Below, piece after piece: positions 55,658-64,000 of a stretch of DNA of 64,000 bases (its first letter is position 1; each line of letters begins with the position of its first letter). A program made the position numbers and the translations under genes. The stretch comes from a virus. The stretch lies in UHGV virus genome UHGV-0125682; one strand, written 5' to 3'. The notes beneath the pieces are model-generated. The model did not search any database. It saw nothing but the letters and a program-made list of their open reading frames with translations, and had not been told where the DNA came from.

Positions 55658-55976
55658 TTTAAGTTGAATTGAAAAACTCTCCGATGTACATTCACTACCG
55701 ATTGGCACACCGGTCAACTTTTTGAGACAAACTGTTTAGTTTTTCGTATTATTGCCTCCGCCATACCTATGGCGGTGCAATATAGGTGGCTGAAAAGCCC
55801 CCGTTGACTCACGGTGTTCCAGCCTTTATTGCGCCGCCACCAGACCGTGGAACAGTCGATGGCGGCTCCGAAAGCAAGGAGTCACAACACTATGAACAAC
55901 TACAGTCTTTTCCCATCACTCGTCTTCCACCACTCACGCGATAATCTGCATTCTTTGCTCGCGCCGGGGGTGTCAA

Positions 55977-56147: not shown

Positions 56148-56457
56148 CACTGACTGTTGCGCCCTGGCATTATCGTGGGGTATATTTCTACGGCACCTTA
56201 GAAAAACGGGTGCCGGGATTGGAACCCCGGATAATGCAAAAGGCGACACAGACGCCGAAAGCGTCTTTTTTTGTGTCATGCCATCGCACAGCCATACGTA
56301 GCGTTTAGCTCAGAGATCAATGGTAGTGCTGGCTGGGCTGCCGAAAGGCAGGCCGGTTCCCTTTTGCGCCGGTAGTTCCAACCCAGTCAGTGCTACCGCC
56401 ATTGAGATTGGAACCTCACGCGGTAGCTCCTTAAATTAGCAAAAGGAGGCTGCCAAT

Positions 56458-57673: not shown

Positions 57674-57985
57674 ATGAAAAAAATAGATTTCACTTATTCT
57701 GCCGCCACACTTGAGCGGCGCTTCACCCTCATTAGAGAGTTGGAACTGTCAAAAGTCTGGTATCAAATCCTACTGGATGAAGAGTTTTCACTGATGGTTA
57801 TAGCAGAAAAATTGGCTATGCCTAATGATCGGCACAAGGTCATAGCCAGCCTCGATCTGGTGACAAACAGATACTGGGAAACAGAGGAACTACATGAGGC
57901 GGGAGTAATTCGTGACCTGATGGAGAATTCCGTTCCCCGCCGCTATCGTGCAGGGAACGGCATCTCCGTGGTTAAAGGTGTTTAA
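57674..57985 (+). CDS. Hypothetical protein
   Basis: 103 aa. Confidence 0.45.
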   Translation: MKKIDFTYSAATLERRFTLIRELELSKVWYQILLDEEFSLMVIAEKLAMPNDRHKVIASLDLVTNRYWETEELHEAGVIRDLMENSVPRRYRAGNGISVVKGV

Positions 57986-58374
57986 AGCTCACCTGCGCGC
58001 TGTTTTTCAAGCACAGATTTAACATTTGGCGCTTTCCCTTTAAAAGAATGGAAAGTGCCACATTTTTCTGTTTTAACCTCGCGCAGAGCTTCGCCATCGG
58101 CGTTCTGCCATTGATGGGATAATGTCATATCACCGCGAGAAGGAACATCCAGCGAGTACAGCGTGTAAGTTCCCCCCATCTCCGCATACTCCTGGAACAC
58201 ATAGCTCATTACGTCAGATTCAGTTTTTCGGTGTGCGTTATCAACCTTATTCCCATTCAGAAATATGGCATCTGGATAGATTTTTATATCAAACCTACCG
58301 CACTTAACTTGTAAATTTCCGGCGCTCGCGATCAAAGGGAAAGACGCCAGTAAAGCAATAGCCAATCTTTTCAA
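57982..58374 (-). CDS. Secreted protein (signal peptide)
   Basis: 130 aa; MKRLAIALLASFPLIASA. Confidence 0.5.
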   Translation of the reverse strand: MKRLAIALLASFPLIASAGNLQVKCGRFDIKIYPDAIFLNGNKVDNAHRKTESDVMSYVFQEYAEMGGTYTLYSLDVPSRGDMTLSHQWQNADGEALREVKTEKCGTFHSFKGKAPNVKSVLEKQRAGEL

Positions 58375-58394
58375 TTCTGCCTCCGCTGCGTAAC

Positions 58395-59018
58395 TTATTG
58401 CCCGTATTTTTTACACCATTGCTCTGCCATTTGTTTGGCTAAAGGCCCGGCTACTGCACTGTATTCTGCTGTTTTACTTTGCACACATGAAGCAGATGTT
58501 TTTTTATTTCGCTGCTCGGTTAGTTTGCGCTCATAAGCCATCATGCTATCGAACCCGGCAATATCACTTTGGCGAAGCATTCCCTTTTTAACCAAAAATT
58601 GCTGCCCCTCGGGCACCAGCGCAAGCATAAAAAGTGGTTGTAATAACTCACCTAATCCTTGCTGGCGATACACTTCGAATTGCTGCCATCCCTGACTTAA
58701 TCTGGAAAGAGTATCTTTGGTTGAATAACCTGTTTTTGTTATAGCTTTGTCCGTCAGATATGCTGTATATGCAAAAACGCAAAAGTCAGTTTTACCAATA
58801 AACTGAGTTCCAACAGGCCGTAATGGAATGCCCTCTCTCTTGCAAAAGTCCATAATTGCCGCTTGTGAATGATCCCCACCAGCGTTATTCATAACCTGCT
58901 GCCCTGCCCTGAATTGTGCAGGTAACGCAGTTGCATTGGCTGTATTAACAGATACGCATCCCAACATAGCCGCGAGCGCGGTCCCTAAAACCCTTAACTT
59001 CACTACACCGTCCTTCAT
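58395..59018 (-). CDS. Secreted protein (signal peptide)
   Basis: 207 aa; hydrophobic N-terminus ...LGTALAAMLGCVSVNTANA. Confidence 0.5.
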   Translation of the reverse strand: MKDGVVKLRVLGTALAAMLGCVSVNTANATALPAQFRAGQQVMNNAGGDHSQAAIMDFCKREGIPLRPVGTQFIGKTDFCVFAYTAYLTDKAITKTGYSTKDTLSRLSQGWQQFEVYRQQGLGELLQPLFMLALVPEGQQFLVKKGMLRQSDIAGFDSMMAYERKLTEQRNKKTSASCVQSKTAEYSAVAGPLAKQMAEQWCKKYGQ

Positions 59019-59286
59019 GTAAACAAAATGAAGTTTTATGTTACAAAAACAATCAACTACATCAACATGATTTAGGCCAAATTTCGGTCAAAAAATAAAA
59101 TCCACAAAAAGTGGTTGACACTATTTTGGAAATCACAAACTGCACATAATCCATCGCGCTAACGGCTCCCGTTGAAGGTTCTTTTGACGATTAACTTTCA
59201 GCCGAAGCGCGGTAGGGAGTCATAACGCCAAAGCAGGCCGCCATGTGCGGCCTTTTTTTGTATCCGTCATCCGTGGAGGAAGGACA

Positions 59287-59940
59287 ATGGAAAAGATCGC
59301 AATATTCAGCCTGACCACCAGCAAGCCTCAAATGCTCACTGCAATACTGAAAGACGGTGCTCTCATTATTAACGAAGTAAAACCCCTTCCCGCGTCAGCA
59401 TTGGAGCAAAAGCAAAAAATTCCTCCAGCCATAGCAGCCCTGCGGAAAAGCAAATTTAAGGTACTGGTAGACGAAATTACGCCAACGATCTCCGCTGGCA
59501 CCGGAGCAAGCCAGGTGACTCTCAAGACCCGTCATGCCGATGGCAGAGCAGCAATCATCGTCGGGATGGAAAGATACAGAGAGTTAAAACTCCAGAAGCT
59601 ATTATCCCTGCCGCAAAATAACAAAGGTGCTTTCGAAATCCCCGACTCTATCGTTGATACCGAATACAACGGTAACGGAGAAGAAGTCTACAGGGTGAAC
59701 TGGCAGGATATCAGGCCGGAGCATATTCTGATGATCCTGTGTTGCTACGCGACCGTATACCACAACGTTGCCAGTGCGGATTACGTAGAGCAGATGACCG
59801 GTACAGTCGATAAAGAGCAAAAAACAGGCATACTCGCTTCGTTCCTTTCCATTATTGGGCATGAAAAAGTTAAAGCAGGCACCTCCCAGCCAAAGTCACT
59901 GGCTGGGAAAGAAGTTGATGAAGATACCGTGATACTTTGA
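59287..59940 (+). CDS. Hypothetical protein
   Basis: ~217 aa from MEKIAIFSL...; RBS GGAGGAAGG. Confidence 0.5.
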   Translation: MEKIAIFSLTTSKPQMLTAILKDGALIINEVKPLPASALEQKQKIPPAIAALRKSKFKVLVDEITPTISAGTGASQVTLKTRHADGRAAIIVGMERYRELKLQKLLSLPQNNKGAFEIPDSIVDTEYNGNGEEVYRVNWQDIRPEHILMILCCYATVYHNVASADYVEQMTGTVDKEQKTGILASFLSIIGHEKVKAGTSQPKSLAGKEVDEDTVIL

Positions 59941-60268
59941 TCACATTAGTAGCTTTGTTAACTCCCTCAATACCAGGTAGAAGAGTAACAAAAATATTGA
60001 CGCCAGTATTTGAGTGGACAATGAAGCGTTCATAAACAGATCAATTAGCATTAATAATTCGAAGATAACATCCATGTCATGCACTCCGTTTAATTTTTAA
60101 TCTAATGCCAGCAAATGAAGCTGGCCCCCGCATAAAGATTAATGAAAGTCACTTGTCACCAGTGAGGGGATTTATGAACCACATCCCCCTGAACTGGTGG
60201 CCTGTCTGTTTCTCGCATTTCACACCCTGCATACAGTTTCCCCCAGGTTATGACTGAGGGGCTTTGTT

Positions 60269-60598
60269 ATGGGCTATAGCAGACTCGACGATAGGTACAT
60301 TGAAGACGATATTTTTCGTGCGCTGTTTCACCAGGAAATGATTAAGCGGGTATCGGAGTATCACTCTGATAATTTCCAGTACACGATAAAGATTGATGAA
60401 GTATATCGTTCAGACCTTGCAGCCTACAGGGCGTATGGCAATGCAGATTTGCGCTGGGTATTCCGGGTGCTGGTGGGCCATGAGTCAGAAATGGAAGAAA
60501 TGCCCGCCGGGACCACGTTAACTCTTCCTGATGTGGCATGGCTGAGGAACAAGATCCGTGATTACGCGAGCGCGGAACCGGAGATAGAAAATGCCTGA
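60269..60598 (+). CDS. Hypothetical protein
   Basis: 109 aa. Confidence 0.45.
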   Translation: MGYSRLDDRYIEDDIFRALFHQEMIKRVSEYHSDNFQYTIKIDEVYRSDLAAYRAYGNADLRWVFRVLVGHESEMEEMPAGTTLTLPDVAWLRNKIRDYASAEPEIENA

Positions 60599-61781
60599 TT
60601 TCCTGAAAAACCAGGACGGGCGCTATATCACTGACGGTCTGTCCTCTAAGGACTTCACGCGTTTATTCGACCTTATCAGGAAAGAACAAACCCGTAAGCG
60701 CCGACAAGCTCACCGGACGCTGACGCCAGGCAGACTTAGGAACAAATCCGCCGAAGATATTCTCAAGTTAGGGAAGAAAAAAGGCGGCACGTTCTTTACG
60801 CGAGACGATCTGAAAGGCTTCGAAAAGCTACGGAGTAAAACGCGCGAAAAATATGACAGCAAGACGGCTGGCATCACATACGCCCAGCTGGTGGCATCCA
60901 GCCAGGCTATCGATATTAAGCGTGCAAATAACGCCGTGGATGACGGATCTGGTATCAAAAGAGCTACACCCGTATCTCTTCGCCACAATGTGATTAATAT
61001 CCGCGTAGAAGCATCGGATATATCCGTCCACCAGCACCATATCGTCCGGATACGCTTTGAAGAATGGGATCAGATGGTTGATGATATCGCAGAAGACGAT
61101 AAATCAGCTCTCAAAATCACTAAATCACTGTGCGCCGGGCGAGTGTCTTTCGATTGTGACTGTGGTCGTCATCAATACTGGTATCGTTACATCGCCACTG
61201 CGGGTAACTTTGCCCTGGCACCGCCAAAAGAATACGCCTATCCAAAAGTTCGCAACCCGAAGCTGCAAGGCGTCGCCTGTAAACACGTGATCCACTCAAT
61301 GACGCGGTTACAGTCCGCCAGTTGGCAAATGAGTATTGCTCGTGCGCTACAAAAGGCTGCAACGCAAATTGCATTTGGTGACGATCGCCGCCGTACAACC
61401 AAACACTTCTCAAAAGAAGACGAGAAGGAGTTTAATCGCAATCGTAGCAGTAAAACGAACGTTGACGCTGCCAAGCGAGAATGGAGGCTCTATCAGAAGC
61501 GCCAGGCCGCTTTAAGCACAAAACTGGCAAAGGACAACGGCAAGATTGACAAGCTACGTGACCAACTGACCAAGGCCAGAAAGTTGTCAGACGCACAGAA
61601 AAAACGGGCGGCAGCAAAAGAAGCGGCGTTGCAACGTGAGAAACAGAAAAACAAGGAGCTTCAGCAACGCCTGGCCGATCAGTTCGCACTGAAGAAGCAG
61701 GCGTTCATTGATGCGCTTGTCATGGCTGGAACACCACCAGCACAAGCTGAAAAAATGTTCATGGAGTACATAAAAAATTAA
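60591..61781 (+). CDS. Hypothetical K/R-rich protein with SWIM-like CxC...CxH zinc-finger motif
   Basis: 396 aa; ...FDCDCGRHQYWYRY...GVACKHVIH...; basic coiled-coil C-terminus. Confidence 0.5.
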   Translation: MPDFLKNQDGRYITDGLSSKDFTRLFDLIRKEQTRKRRQAHRTLTPGRLRNKSAEDILKLGKKKGGTFFTRDDLKGFEKLRSKTREKYDSKTAGITYAQLVASSQAIDIKRANNAVDDGSGIKRATPVSLRHNVINIRVEASDISVHQHHIVRIRFEEWDQMVDDIAEDDKSALKITKSLCAGRVSFDCDCGRHQYWYRYIATAGNFALAPPKEYAYPKVRNPKLQGVACKHVIHSMTRLQSASWQMSIARALQKAATQIAFGDDRRRTTKHFSKEDEKEFNRNRSSKTNVDAAKREWRLYQKRQAALSTKLAKDNGKIDKLRDQLTKARKLSDAQKKRAAAKEAALQREKQKNKELQQRLADQFALKKQAFIDALVMAGTPPAQAEKMFMEYIKN

Positions 61782-61783
61782 CA

Positions 61784-61808
61784 AAGGTGGGTTTATCCCA
61801 CCTTTTTA
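61784..61808. terminator. Bidirectional rho-independent terminator
   Basis: AAAGGTGGG-TTTATC-CCACCTTT flanked by A- and T-runs, between convergent genes. Confidence 0.7.
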
Positions 61809-62524
61809 TTAGCATCGCATTTAATTTTTTCAAGTGAATCAGAAAGCTTTGAGAGAAGCTCCTCAAGTGTTTCCCTGTCATTTGTATCACCCGAACGAAA
61901 AGATGAGTTTTTCACGGCGGTAAAAAATTCATAAAAATCATCCACCGAATTTAAGCTCTCACCTTTCTCTCTATATAATTTAATAATATGAATGATATCG
62001 CTATCCACACATTCAATCTGTTTCCTAATTTCTTTAAGCCGTTTTTCTAATGATTCAAGTTCTTCTTCTTGTTCAATATACTTTTTAACGTCTCTCTGCT
62101 TCTTAATGGCTTTCTTAATATCACTGTTAATTGTCCTTATTTGTTCTTTTTTATTTGCAATTTCATCTATTTTTCTTAATTTAGCATATAATGTGCTTGT
62201 CACCAAAGAAATTAACAGGGTTAACAGTGGCGCTAATATTGATGCCACAACACCATAAATAAAAGGCAAAACAAAATGAGCTACGAACGATGGTAAAAAA
62301 AGATTCCCCAATAATGGGATCTTTTCCCCGACAAACACTATAGATAATGTATACATAACATCATCTTTTGACTTCAGTAATATAAATATGTCTCGCCAAT
62401 TAGAAATTAAAAACGAAATAAAAATGTAGGCAAAAACCTTATTAAACAACTTATCTTTTACAGCATCTTCTAACAGATTTTGGGTAGAGGAGTTTTCCTT
62501 TTCTATTGATGAATCAGCGCTCAT
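61793..62524 (-). CDS. AT-rich membrane protein with C-terminal coiled coil
   Basis: 243 aa; hydrophobic helices in residues ~30-110, then K/E-rich heptads; markedly lower GC than neighbours. Confidence 0.55.
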   Translation of the reverse strand: MSADSSIEKENSSTQNLLEDAVKDKLFNKVFAYIFISFLISNWRDIFILLKSKDDVMYTLSIVFVGEKIPLLGNLFLPSFVAHFVLPFIYGVVASILAPLLTLLISLVTSTLYAKLRKIDEIANKKEQIRTINSDIKKAIKKQRDVKKYIEQEEELESLEKRLKEIRKQIECVDSDIIHIIKLYREKGESLNSVDDFYEFFTAVKNSSFRSGDTNDRETLEELLSKLSDSLEKIKCDANKKVG

Positions 62525-62555
62525 ATAATTACCAAATATTTAAACATTGATTTTA

Positions 62556-62580
62556 TGTAAAAGCGGTCATCCAGACCGCA
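62556..62580 (-). terminator. Rho-independent terminator downstream of higA
   Basis: Minus strand GCGGTC-TGGAT-GACCGC followed by TTTT. Confidence 0.6.
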
Positions 62581-62584
62581 AAAC

Positions 62585-62944
62585 TTAAACACCAACCAGA
62601 CTTTCCAGTGGAATACCAAACTGGGCATGTAAACGACGAATCATAGGTAACGTCAAATTTCGTGTCCCATTAAGCACTTCGTAAACACGGTTTGACTTAC
62701 CAATTGCCGGTTCCAGATCCTTCACGGTCAGCCCTTGCTGTTCCATACGGAATTTAATGGCCTCAATAGGTGATGGTGGCTCAATTGGGTAATGTTTTTT
62801 CTCGTACTCCTCAATGAGAAGACACATGACCTCAAAGAAATCACCTTCCGGGGTGTTCATTTCCGGTTCGTTATCGAACATCGGTTCGACCGCACGCAGT
62901 GCGGCCTCATAATCTTGTTCTGTACGGATAGGTTTAATGTTCAT
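62585..62944 (-). CDS. higA: HigA-type antitoxin (XRE HTH)
   Basis: 119 aa; C-terminal HTH ...LTVKDLEPAIGKSNRVYEVLNGTRNLTLPMIRRL...; directly downstream of HigB-like toxin. Confidence 0.75.
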   Translation of the reverse strand: MNIKPIRTEQDYEAALRAVEPMFDNEPEMNTPEGDFFEVMCLLIEEYEKKHYPIEPPSPIEAIKFRMEQQGLTVKDLEPAIGKSNRVYEVLNGTRNLTLPMIRRLHAQFGIPLESLVGV

Positions 62945-62947
62945 GAT

Positions 62948-63250
62948 TTACTCCAGTTCTATTGTATCCGCTTCAATGGCATCGTATTCCTTATGTGTTC
63001 CAATAAACTTAACGAACATCCATCCTCGCTGATAAGCAATTGCGACAATTAACCTGTAATCATTTCCCTTAATATTGAACACCACGCGCCTGTTTTTAAG
63101 GATGCTGGCTGTCCGGTACTGTTCTTTGATCTCAGCCGGATTTTTCCAGTCAGCCTTTGTTGCTTCATCAACCCATGCCTTTAATGGCTGTTCTGCATCG
63201 GGATTCTTCGCCCAGAAATCCCTTAGTGTTTTTACCGAAATTATTTTCAT
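62948..63250 (-). CDS. higB: HigB-type toxin (RelE/ParE superfamily)
   Basis: ~100 aa from MKIISVKTLRDFW...; ...FVKFIGTHKEYDAIE... resembles HigB GTHKEYD motif; RBS GAAGGA. Confidence 0.75.
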   Translation of the reverse strand: MKIISVKTLRDFWAKNPDAEQPLKAWVDEATKADWKNPAEIKEQYRTASILKNRRVVFNIKGNDYRLIVAIAYQRGWMFVKFIGTHKEYDAIEADTIELE

Positions 63251-63395: not shown

Positions 63396-64000
63396 ATGGG
63401 CCGTTTTGACGAATGGTTTTCTGACGATGCAAACCTGGCAAGTAAGGAGTCAGAACATGACAGCACGCAGAGAGAAACGCCAGCGCCGATTGAAGCGAAT
63501 GCAGGAGGCGCGCCGGAACATGGCAATACCAGTTCGGATTCATTCAGCATTCTGGAAGAGCAACCCGCCGCCAAAGCTGATAGCCATGATAATTTTGCTG
63601 ATAGCAACGGTGGCCTTACTCCAGATGCTGGCGAATCAGATATAGCCATACTTCCACCTTCCCTGGCTGGCAGAGAACCAACTCCACAGCTAAAAGCACG
63701 CTATAACGGGCATAAAGCCTTTAACGACCAAATCCGCGCAGACTGGATGCTGATTATTGAATCCAGCCCAGACGCGTTTCAGGCTCTCTTATATCGACCA
63801 GATGTTGGCACATATGGGGTAGTCAGCGACGAAACAGGAGAAGAGTCATTCACTGAACTGGATAACAACCAGCGCGAACTGACTTACCAGGAACCTGAAA
63901 TCGTTTATGTGCTGGATAACCCGGACGGGCGTGACTCTTTCCATGCGATTGACGCAGACGGTGAGCAGGATGGCTTAACCGATGATGTTCTGATTCTGCG
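63396..64000 (+). CDS. Hypothetical acidic protein, 3'-partial (runs off window; not in ORF track)
   Basis: ATG at 63396, open for 201 codons to window end; divergent from higB. Confidence 0.5.
   Translation, partial: MGRFDEWFSDDANLASKESEHDSTQRETPAPIEANAGGAPEHGNTSSDSFSILEEQPAAKADSHDNFADSNGGLTPDAGESDIAILPPSLAGREPTPQLKARYNGHKAFNDQIRADWMLIIESSPDAFQALLYRPDVGTYGVVSDETGEESFTELDNNQRELTYQEPEIVYVLDNPDGRDSFHAIDADGEQDGLTDDVLIL

Follow-up and report, generated by a model that had tools for sequence, protein, structure and literature searches.

The region described here belongs to a 64,000-nt stretch of the virus genome UHGV-0125682 (the window, taken at its full length) and centres on gene 25, the last of three + strand open reading frames (ORFs) that are followed by a hairpin and by a cassette of genes in the opposite orientation (Table 1). 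All three ORFs run in the same direction and lie exactly where the original prediction, made from the letters of the DNA, had put them. Between positions 59000 and 61777 the DNA is 98.2% identical to that of Escherichia phage D6, a P1-like plasmid prophage (D6 record), and the D6 record names the counterparts of all three ORFs as homologues of P1 mat, 26 and 25. The first product matches phrog_1837 (E 3.4e-94) and shares 33% identity with P1 Mat (pairwise E 5e-40). The second matches phrog_1269, "baseplate wedge subunit" (E 2.3e-36), with 41% identity to P1 gp26, and reaches an E value of only 0.053 with the Pfam family Phage_gp53. The third aligns over residues 2-395 with phrog_1722, "tail protein" (E 5.1e-197), and is 56-57% identical to P1 gp25 (BLASTP E 8e-138) and 99% identical to D6 orf74. 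On homology and synteny, from which both the identity and the setting of the region are derived, the three genes are mat, 26 and 25 of a D6-like member of the P1 plasmid-phage family, and the 396-aa protein is almost certainly the orthologue of P1 gp25. The rest of the window is likewise P1/D6-like: it contains Ref and an Icd/Ant region that includes a C4 antisense RNA, and it ends in a homologue of gene 7. Neither the genes nor, given its near-identity to a phage genome already published, the DNA is new.

Table 1. Features of the gene 25 region, in window coordinates (aa, amino acids)
Feature	Position	Strand	Match or basis
mat homologue (217 aa; P1 "maturation control" protein Mat; D6 orf78)	59287-59940	+	phrog_1837
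P1-type Lpa (late promoter activator) box, perfect, AAGTCACTT	60146-60154		mat-26 spacer
Gene 26 homologue (109 aa; baseplate protein, T4 gp53-like wedge or "plug")	60269-60598	+	phrog_1269
Gene 25 homologue (396 aa; "tail stability" protein gp25; D6 orf74)	60591-61781	+	phrog_1722
gp25 N-terminal basic helical region (aa 1-90; net +12)	60591-60860	+	AlphaFold secondary structure, charge
gp25 probable SWIM-like core (aa 118-262)	60942-61376	+	AlphaFold model
CxC half of putative metal site (C189 61155-61157, C191 61161-61163)	61155-61163	+	conservation
CxH half of putative metal site (C230 61278-61280, K231, H232 61284-61286)	61278-61286	+	conservation
gp25 C-terminal basic helical tail (aa 266-396; net +18)	61386-61778	+	AlphaFold secondary structure, charge
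Hairpin terminator shared by gene 25 and the convergent 243-aa gene	61783-61805		fold energy, both strands
Cargo cassette (243-aa AT-rich membrane/coiled-coil protein, HigA-like, HigB-like)	61793-63250	-	phrog_8191; PD-Lambda-2_A/B; low GC
HigA-like gene	62585-62944	-	cassette member
HigB-like gene	62948-63250	-	cassette member
Gene 7 homologue (neck "stopper"; runs off the window)	63396-64000	+	phrog_1906 (E 1.7e-70)

The 396-aa protein had been singled out because of a CxC...CxH motif, and this motif is indeed present, with FDCDCGRHQYWYRY at residues 187-200 and GVACKHVIH at residues 227-235. The gp25 family comprises 444 representatives when clustered at 50%, and the pattern C.C(36-43 residues)C.H occurs in every one of the 245 collected homologues of at least 300 aa. 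Residues C189, C191, C230 and H232 are invariant in the 32 homologues compared (32/32), and in an alignment of 72 sequences, which reaches down to 22% identity, the same four residues are found among only 11 invariant columns. Judged from this conservation, the motif is not a chance pattern.

Structure prediction, which had been suggested as a way to check the motif, came out in its favour. For full-length gp25, AlphaFold2 returned a model with a predicted local distance difference test (pLDDT) of 82 and a predicted template modelling score (pTM) of 0.71, and the part that holds the motif, residues 88-265, was modelled with confidence (pLDDT 91, pTM 0.87). In this model, the core is laid out as a three-stranded sheet, two helices, a strand that ends in C189-x-C191, an inserted helix (192-204), a loop and a helix that starts from C230-K-H232. 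The best fold match of the core model in the PDB is a SWIM protein, ZSWIM8, which also ranks second for the full-length model, there among coiled coils. A Foldseek comparison with the viral models of BFVD gave eight matches with E <=1e-3 and template modelling (TM) scores of about 0.5-0.6; two of these are named "SWIM-type domain-containing protein" and come from Achromobacter phage Motura and Burkholderia phage BcepSauron. The core of gp25 is likely to be a metal-binding SWIM-like domain, in which the invariant residues of the Cys-x-Cys…Cys-x-His set most likely coordinate a single zinc ion. We read the model as a SWIM-like fold interrupted by a family-specific and highly conserved insert of ca. 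37 residues, made of a helix and a loop. Because the conserved loop residues E214, P218, K219, N222 and G227 are invariant, the alignment suggests that the insert is itself functional.

Several searches with profiles and sequences weigh against this assignment. The Pfam SWIM profile (PF04434) gave no match with native gp25 and, among the 32 homologues, matched only three, with E 2.8 or worse; the other Pfam hits of these homologues were coiled-coil noise. When the insert was artificially deleted, SWIM became the top Pfam match of gp25, at 13.1 bits and thus below the 19.6-bit cut-off. A profile of the core domain run against 5.8 billion proteins recovered only members or fragments of the gp25 family, none of them annotated by Pfam, and PDB chains, queried both by sequence and by profile, yielded no relative. 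Scans of gp25 against Pfam and NCBIfam as a whole returned nothing useful. Membership of the SWIM family proper is not established. As to the SWIM-like zinc finger that had been proposed, the part that stands is the set of invariant ligands and a confident fold model that matches SWIM proteins, while at the level of the Pfam SWIM profile the protein stays below threshold.

The description of gp25 as a K/R-rich protein with a long basic tail agrees with its composition and with the model. The protein contains 83 Lys and Arg vs 48 Asp and Glu, which gives a net charge of +35 and an isoelectric point (pI) of 10.1, and long helices are predicted in the C-terminal 131 residues. This tail varies in length and composition among homologues, and its small helical end-domain is conserved. 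As modelled, gp25 is a very basic protein in three parts, its central domain standing between basic helices at the N-terminus and the variable helical tail, which is basic as well. Binding of nucleic acid by gp25 is plausible because of its charge.

Genes 26 and 25, which have 8 nt in common, are surely expressed together. Upstream of gene 26, a gap of 328 bp separates it from mat and contains a minus-strand promoter-like site and a small minus-strand ORF. Of the three-gene operon put forward in the original prediction, the order and strand hold, mat-26-25 being kept in relatives; a single mat-26-25 transcript is no more than plausible in view of this spacer with its minus-strand site and ORF. 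Synteny was sampled in 80 P1-family loci from IMG/VR; the distance from mat down to gene 26 is 0-9 nt in many non-P1 lineages and ca. 332 nt in D6-like ones. The order Mat-26-25-7-24-6 also occurs in a contig whose gp25 is only 29% identical, and a decayed Vibrio prophage has kept it too. The late unit annotated in P1 is 26-25-7-24-6-5, with the late promoter LP26, and mat is located elsewhere (P1 record). Compared in this way, mat, 26 and 25 appear to begin a conserved operon of late virion-assembly genes, mat-26-25-7-24-6-5, the placement of mat in P1 proper being the exception among relatives.

Two of the loci compared show less regular arrangements. In a contig of Vibrio alginolyticus (L091, 6564-7714) the gp25 gene is broken into pieces of 111 aa and 237 aa; these lie within a Mat-26-25-7 remnant adjoining an IS605-family transposase gene, an arrangement that points to a decaying P1-family prophage. 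Next to a short gp25 homologue of Sulfurovaceae, the upstream genes of 176 aa and 70 aa could not be demonstrated to be Mat or gp26.

A rightward late or sigma-70 promoter was sought for gene 26 and for mat, and none was convincing. The annotated P1 record, from which the definition of the Lpa box was taken, gives the P1 late promoters as AAGTGACTT-4-CAGAAT for LPmat and AAATGACTA-4-TAGAAT for LP26. Exact matches to this box occur twice in the window vs 0.71 expected by chance, and a naive search for an enriched 9-bp palindrome did not recover the box. One perfect copy lies in the mat-26 spacer, where a scan of both orientations found a -10-like hexamer, TAATCT, at the P1 spacing of 4 nt on the minus strand only. 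This minus-strand site faces a 44-aa, very hydrophobic ORF (59941-60075, minus strand; D6 orf77) whose end abuts the mat stop codon. This ORF may encode a late-expressed small membrane peptide that is transcribed antisense towards mat. Directly upstream of the mat ribosome-binding site, the interval 59128-59262 (+ strand) contains a long hairpin (59151-59216) and then a terminator-like hairpin with a seven-U run (59235-59253), for which there is no + strand gene upstream to terminate. Rfam gave no match for this interval, and the hairpins could belong to a small RNA or to an attenuator leader for mat.

Gene 25 is followed, 2 nt past its stop codon, by the hairpin listed in Table 1, which also overlaps the stop codon of the convergent 243-aa gene. 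It had been described as strong and bidirectional, and it does fold on both strands: the GC-rich stem of 9 bp has a folding energy of -14.1 kcal/mol, with z values of -4.5 on the + strand and -4.2 on the - strand, and the U-run is better on the + strand. The late operon resumes with gene 7 at 63396, after a cargo insertion of 1.6 kb. The cargo, which is no part of the gp25 module, has a GC content of 0.31-0.36 vs 0.48-0.52 for gene 25, which in this respect is like the phage backbone. Its HigB/HigA-like pair matches the PADLOC models PD-Lambda-2_A (E 1.9e-41) and PD-Lambda-2_B (E 6.9e-43), and the antitoxin is a shortened version of its component, as it aligns with no more than the initial 119 of the 402 positions in the profile. 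The 243-aa membrane protein gave only weak coiled-coil matches to the PADLOC defence models.

The interval between genes 25 and 7 measures 6-24 nt in P1 and many relatives and 325-2918 nt in D6-like and a few other lineages. When present, its contents are all on the opposite strand and consist, in varying mixes, of divergent alleles of the AT-rich membrane/coiled-coil protein of ca. 243 aa, of HigB/HigA- or RelE/HigA-type pairs and of small ORFs. From this comparison, the D6-like lineage is one in which opposite-strand cargo interrupts the late operon right after gene 25, with the hairpin as the predicted terminator of the junction. That gp25 adjoins the AT-rich membrane gene and higBA is due to the insertion of this cargo between genes 25 and 7 in D6-like elements. 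The 25/7 junction is a site within an essential late operon at which toxin-antitoxin and membrane-protein cargo has landed repeatedly.

Further upstream in the window, a C4 antisense RNA was detected at 56316-56403 (+ strand; 76.7 bits), together with a weaker second C4-like copy at 55765-55844 (+ strand; 40.2 bits), which is below the gathering threshold. An isrK-like element lies at 56193-56271 (+ strand; 62.5 bits), upstream of the icd/ant genes, an arrangement like that of the P1 immunity region. At 57982-59018 (- strand), where D6 has a simB-like gene, the window carries a 130-aa gene with a signal-peptide-like N-terminus and a 207-aa gene. These match only PHROGs of unknown function (phrog_13864 and phrog_12786) and mark another spot that is variable relative to D6.

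The P1 GenBank annotation names gp25 "tail stability". Gene 25 is listed among the known essential genes of P1 and amber mutants have been reported (PMC10695390). Mass spectrometry of P1 virions purified on caesium chloride (CsCl) detected only two gp25 peptides, and no HHpred match above 50% was found for the protein (PMC9024508). Cryo-electron microscopy (cryo-EM) has located P1 gp26 in the baseplate (bioRxiv 10.1101/2025.07.21.665459; PMC12810830), has shown gp7 to be the neck stopper (PMC12810830) and has assigned gp24 to the tail terminator, gp6 to the hub and gp5 to the spike (PMC12810830; PMC10304247; bioRxiv 2025.07.21.665459). gp25 is mentioned nowhere in these three studies. Since the P1 structure studies place the operon neighbours of gp25 and never mention gp25 itself, the protein is probably low-copy, asymmetric or transient.

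The product of the next core gene differs sharply from gp25 in charge. In the window as in D6 and P1, the net charge of +35 on gp25 is almost exactly balanced by one of -31 to -33 on gp7 (-31 for the 201-aa fragment in the window). A strongly basic character, with net charges of +23 to +31, is also seen in distant homologues of gp25, and there too the gene that comes next encodes an acidic protein. The gp25-like gene of Acinetobacter phage ABMM1 has a gp53-like gene on one side and a small phrog_4597 gene downstream, and a phrog_4597 gene also comes directly after its counterpart in Xanthomonas phage Rb1; both loci are within the virion module. No pairwise similarity was detected between gp7 and the phrog_4597 proteins of these Acinetobacter and Xanthomonas phages, so that in them the "conserved gp25-stopper pair" rests on position and size only. 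The charge complementarity of gp25 and gp7 is suggestive only.

A scheme that combines these observations would place gp25 in the neck, or at the end of the tail nearest the head, and have it serve morphogenesis there as a factor that is low-copy or transient. The zinc-stabilised domain and the conserved loop would form a rigid module for docking. The basic arms would engage an acidic partner, for which the very acidic stopper gp7, encoded next to gp25, is the leading candidate and the terminator gp24 or the electronegative lumen of the tail tube are alternatives. Without gp25, tails would not be capped or joined as they should, and this would account for the "tail stability" phenotype that P1 gene 25 mutants are reported to show. 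That gp25 is a neck or tail-completion assembly factor is a tentative assignment, possible and held at less than even confidence. It is somewhat unlikely, but conceivable, that proteins of the gp25 type form an unrecognised class of zinc-dependent morphogenetic factor, in which a SWIM-derived domain, bearing a conserved insert and combined with long polybasic arms, would either chaperone the acidic assembly of neck stopper and terminator, or sit asymmetrically in the neck channel and hold the DNA end. If true, this would explain why gp25 is the sole protein of the P1 tail/neck operon left out of the virion structure papers.

The role in the neck is weakened by other considerations. Most phage structural proteins are acidic anyway, which lessens the weight of the charge pairing, and the "tail stability" label reportedly goes back to electron microscopy of amber mutants in 1983. 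Knock-down of P1 gene 25 by CRISPR interference (CRISPRi) lowered plating only about 10-fold (PMC10695390). When the identity of the protein, its anatomy and the proposed mechanism are taken together, the account given here remains our best explanation, with a confidence that is a little better than even.

The main rival to the favoured role as an assembly factor is that of a DNA-binding virion protein, T4 gp2-like in function, a few copies of which would accompany the packaged DNA in the channel of the neck or tail, for example to hold or protect a DNA end, and could be ejected with it. SWIM domains were first proposed as DNA-binding or protein-binding modules, and the high charge and pI of gp25, a basic character that is conserved across the family, would suit such a function. 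Its weak detection in CsCl-purified P1 virions (PMC9024508) would fit as well, as would its absence from symmetric reconstructions, since a few copies in the channel would be invisible in symmetrised cryo-EM maps. One homologue has even been auto-annotated as a nucleoid-associated protein, although this probably reflects composition only. However, no DNA-binding family matched gp25, similarity to T4 gp2 was seen in no search and the reported phenotype concerns tails, not the fate of DNA. We regard a DNA-binding virion protein as unlikely. A chaperone for the tape measure protein Sit, or for polymerisation of the tail tube, is improbable. In such a case the long basic helices would wrap around the tape measure, or line the acidic lumen of the tube, while assembly lasts and then be discarded, for which the combination of a long basic helical tail with a small conserved C-terminal end-domain is suitably scaffold-like. 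The gene of Xanthomonas phage Rb1 lies just downstream of a Sit-like tape measure/lysozyme gene, and in P1 Sit is not resolved in the maps (PMC12810830) and the tube lumen has been described as electronegative (PMC10304247). Yet gene 25 does not adjoin sit in P1-family genomes, the tail-length phenotype is annotated for P1 gene 6 and not for gene 25, and gp25 has no homology to known tape-measure chaperones.

Tail assembly proteins with metal clusters have a precedent in lambda gpL, and the Cys3-His set of gp25 might bind an iron-sulfur (Fe-S) cluster, as in gpL and in 3Cys-1His 2Fe-2S proteins, or no metal at all. Many homologues do carry extra cysteines beside the third ligand (G-C-C-C-K-H), but these are not conserved, the window protein having G-V-A-C-K-H, and the fold matches are zinc-binding SWIM proteins; we consider this highly improbable and, like the tape-measure chaperone, a minor alternative. 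A last possibility concerns the accessory end of the window, in which the original prediction had placed the gene, as a possibly defence-related nucleic-acid-binding zinc-finger protein grouped with the membrane gene and higBA. Gene 25 does adjoin AT-rich cargo whose toxin-antitoxin pair matches PD-Lambda-2 A/B of PADLOC, but its GC content is that of the backbone (0.48-0.52 vs 0.31 for the cargo), the cargo varies while gene 25 stays constant, and the P1 orthologue is a late morphogenesis gene listed as essential (PMC10695390). PADLOC gave no matches for mat and gene 26 and, for gp25, a single 13.4-bit match in the coiled-coil tail, that is no real match for any of the three. Gene 25 is a core gene that in P1 and many relatives lies directly before gene 7, with no cargo in between, and neither its accessory placement nor its link to defence genes was borne out; this alternative is essentially excluded.

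Phage P1 is a classic model, with relatives that are common in Enterobacteria as plasmid phages carrying resistance genes. In recent cryo-EM work the claim is made that nearly all P1 proteins have been identified from head to tail, yet gene 25 is still without a fold, a location or a mechanism. The SWIM-like Cys3-His module of gp25 and its charge pairing with the stopper appear to be new, neither having been found in the literature searched, where queries for SWIM and phage tails returned only "swimming" or unrelated items. The invariance of the Cys3-His site within its SWIM-like fold, the extremely high positive charge and a conserved linkage to the very acidic stopper gene together make gp25 experimentally testable, and the domain is a modest, testable addition to what is known of P1 rather than a surprise.

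Compared with known systems, the closest counterparts are D6 orf74 and P1 gp25, which have length, motif and position after gene 26 in common with the window protein. P1 gp25 departs from it in the C-terminal tail, beyond about residue 335, and in P1 gene 7 follows directly after gene 25, whereas in D6-like elements the cargo cassette and the terminator lie between the two. Phage lambda gpL, a tail-tip morphogenesis protein whose conserved cysteines hold an Fe-S metal centre, resembles gp25 in having cysteines in a tail protein; there is no kinship in sequence or fold, and the metal, the position in the tail and the role differ. The T4 protein gp2, a DNA-end protector and head completion protein, is likewise basic, low-copy, encoded near gp53 and neck genes and needed for head-tail function; it has no detectable homology to gp25 and the likeness is an analogy only, which would hold if gp25 were a DNA-binding protein. 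With the SWIM domain (PF04434; ZSWIM8, PDB 9rwz; Shu2, PDB 6dex) gp25 shares the CxC…CxH arrangement, in which CxC ends a strand and C-K-H starts a helix, and SWIM proteins are the best matches to its structure both in the PDB and among models of viral proteins. It differs in the distance between the two ligand halves, which is roughly 6-25 residues in canonical SWIM domains and 36-43 residues in the gp25 family owing to the conserved inserted helix and loop, and in that its domain is flanked by long basic helices and encoded in a virion-assembly operon.

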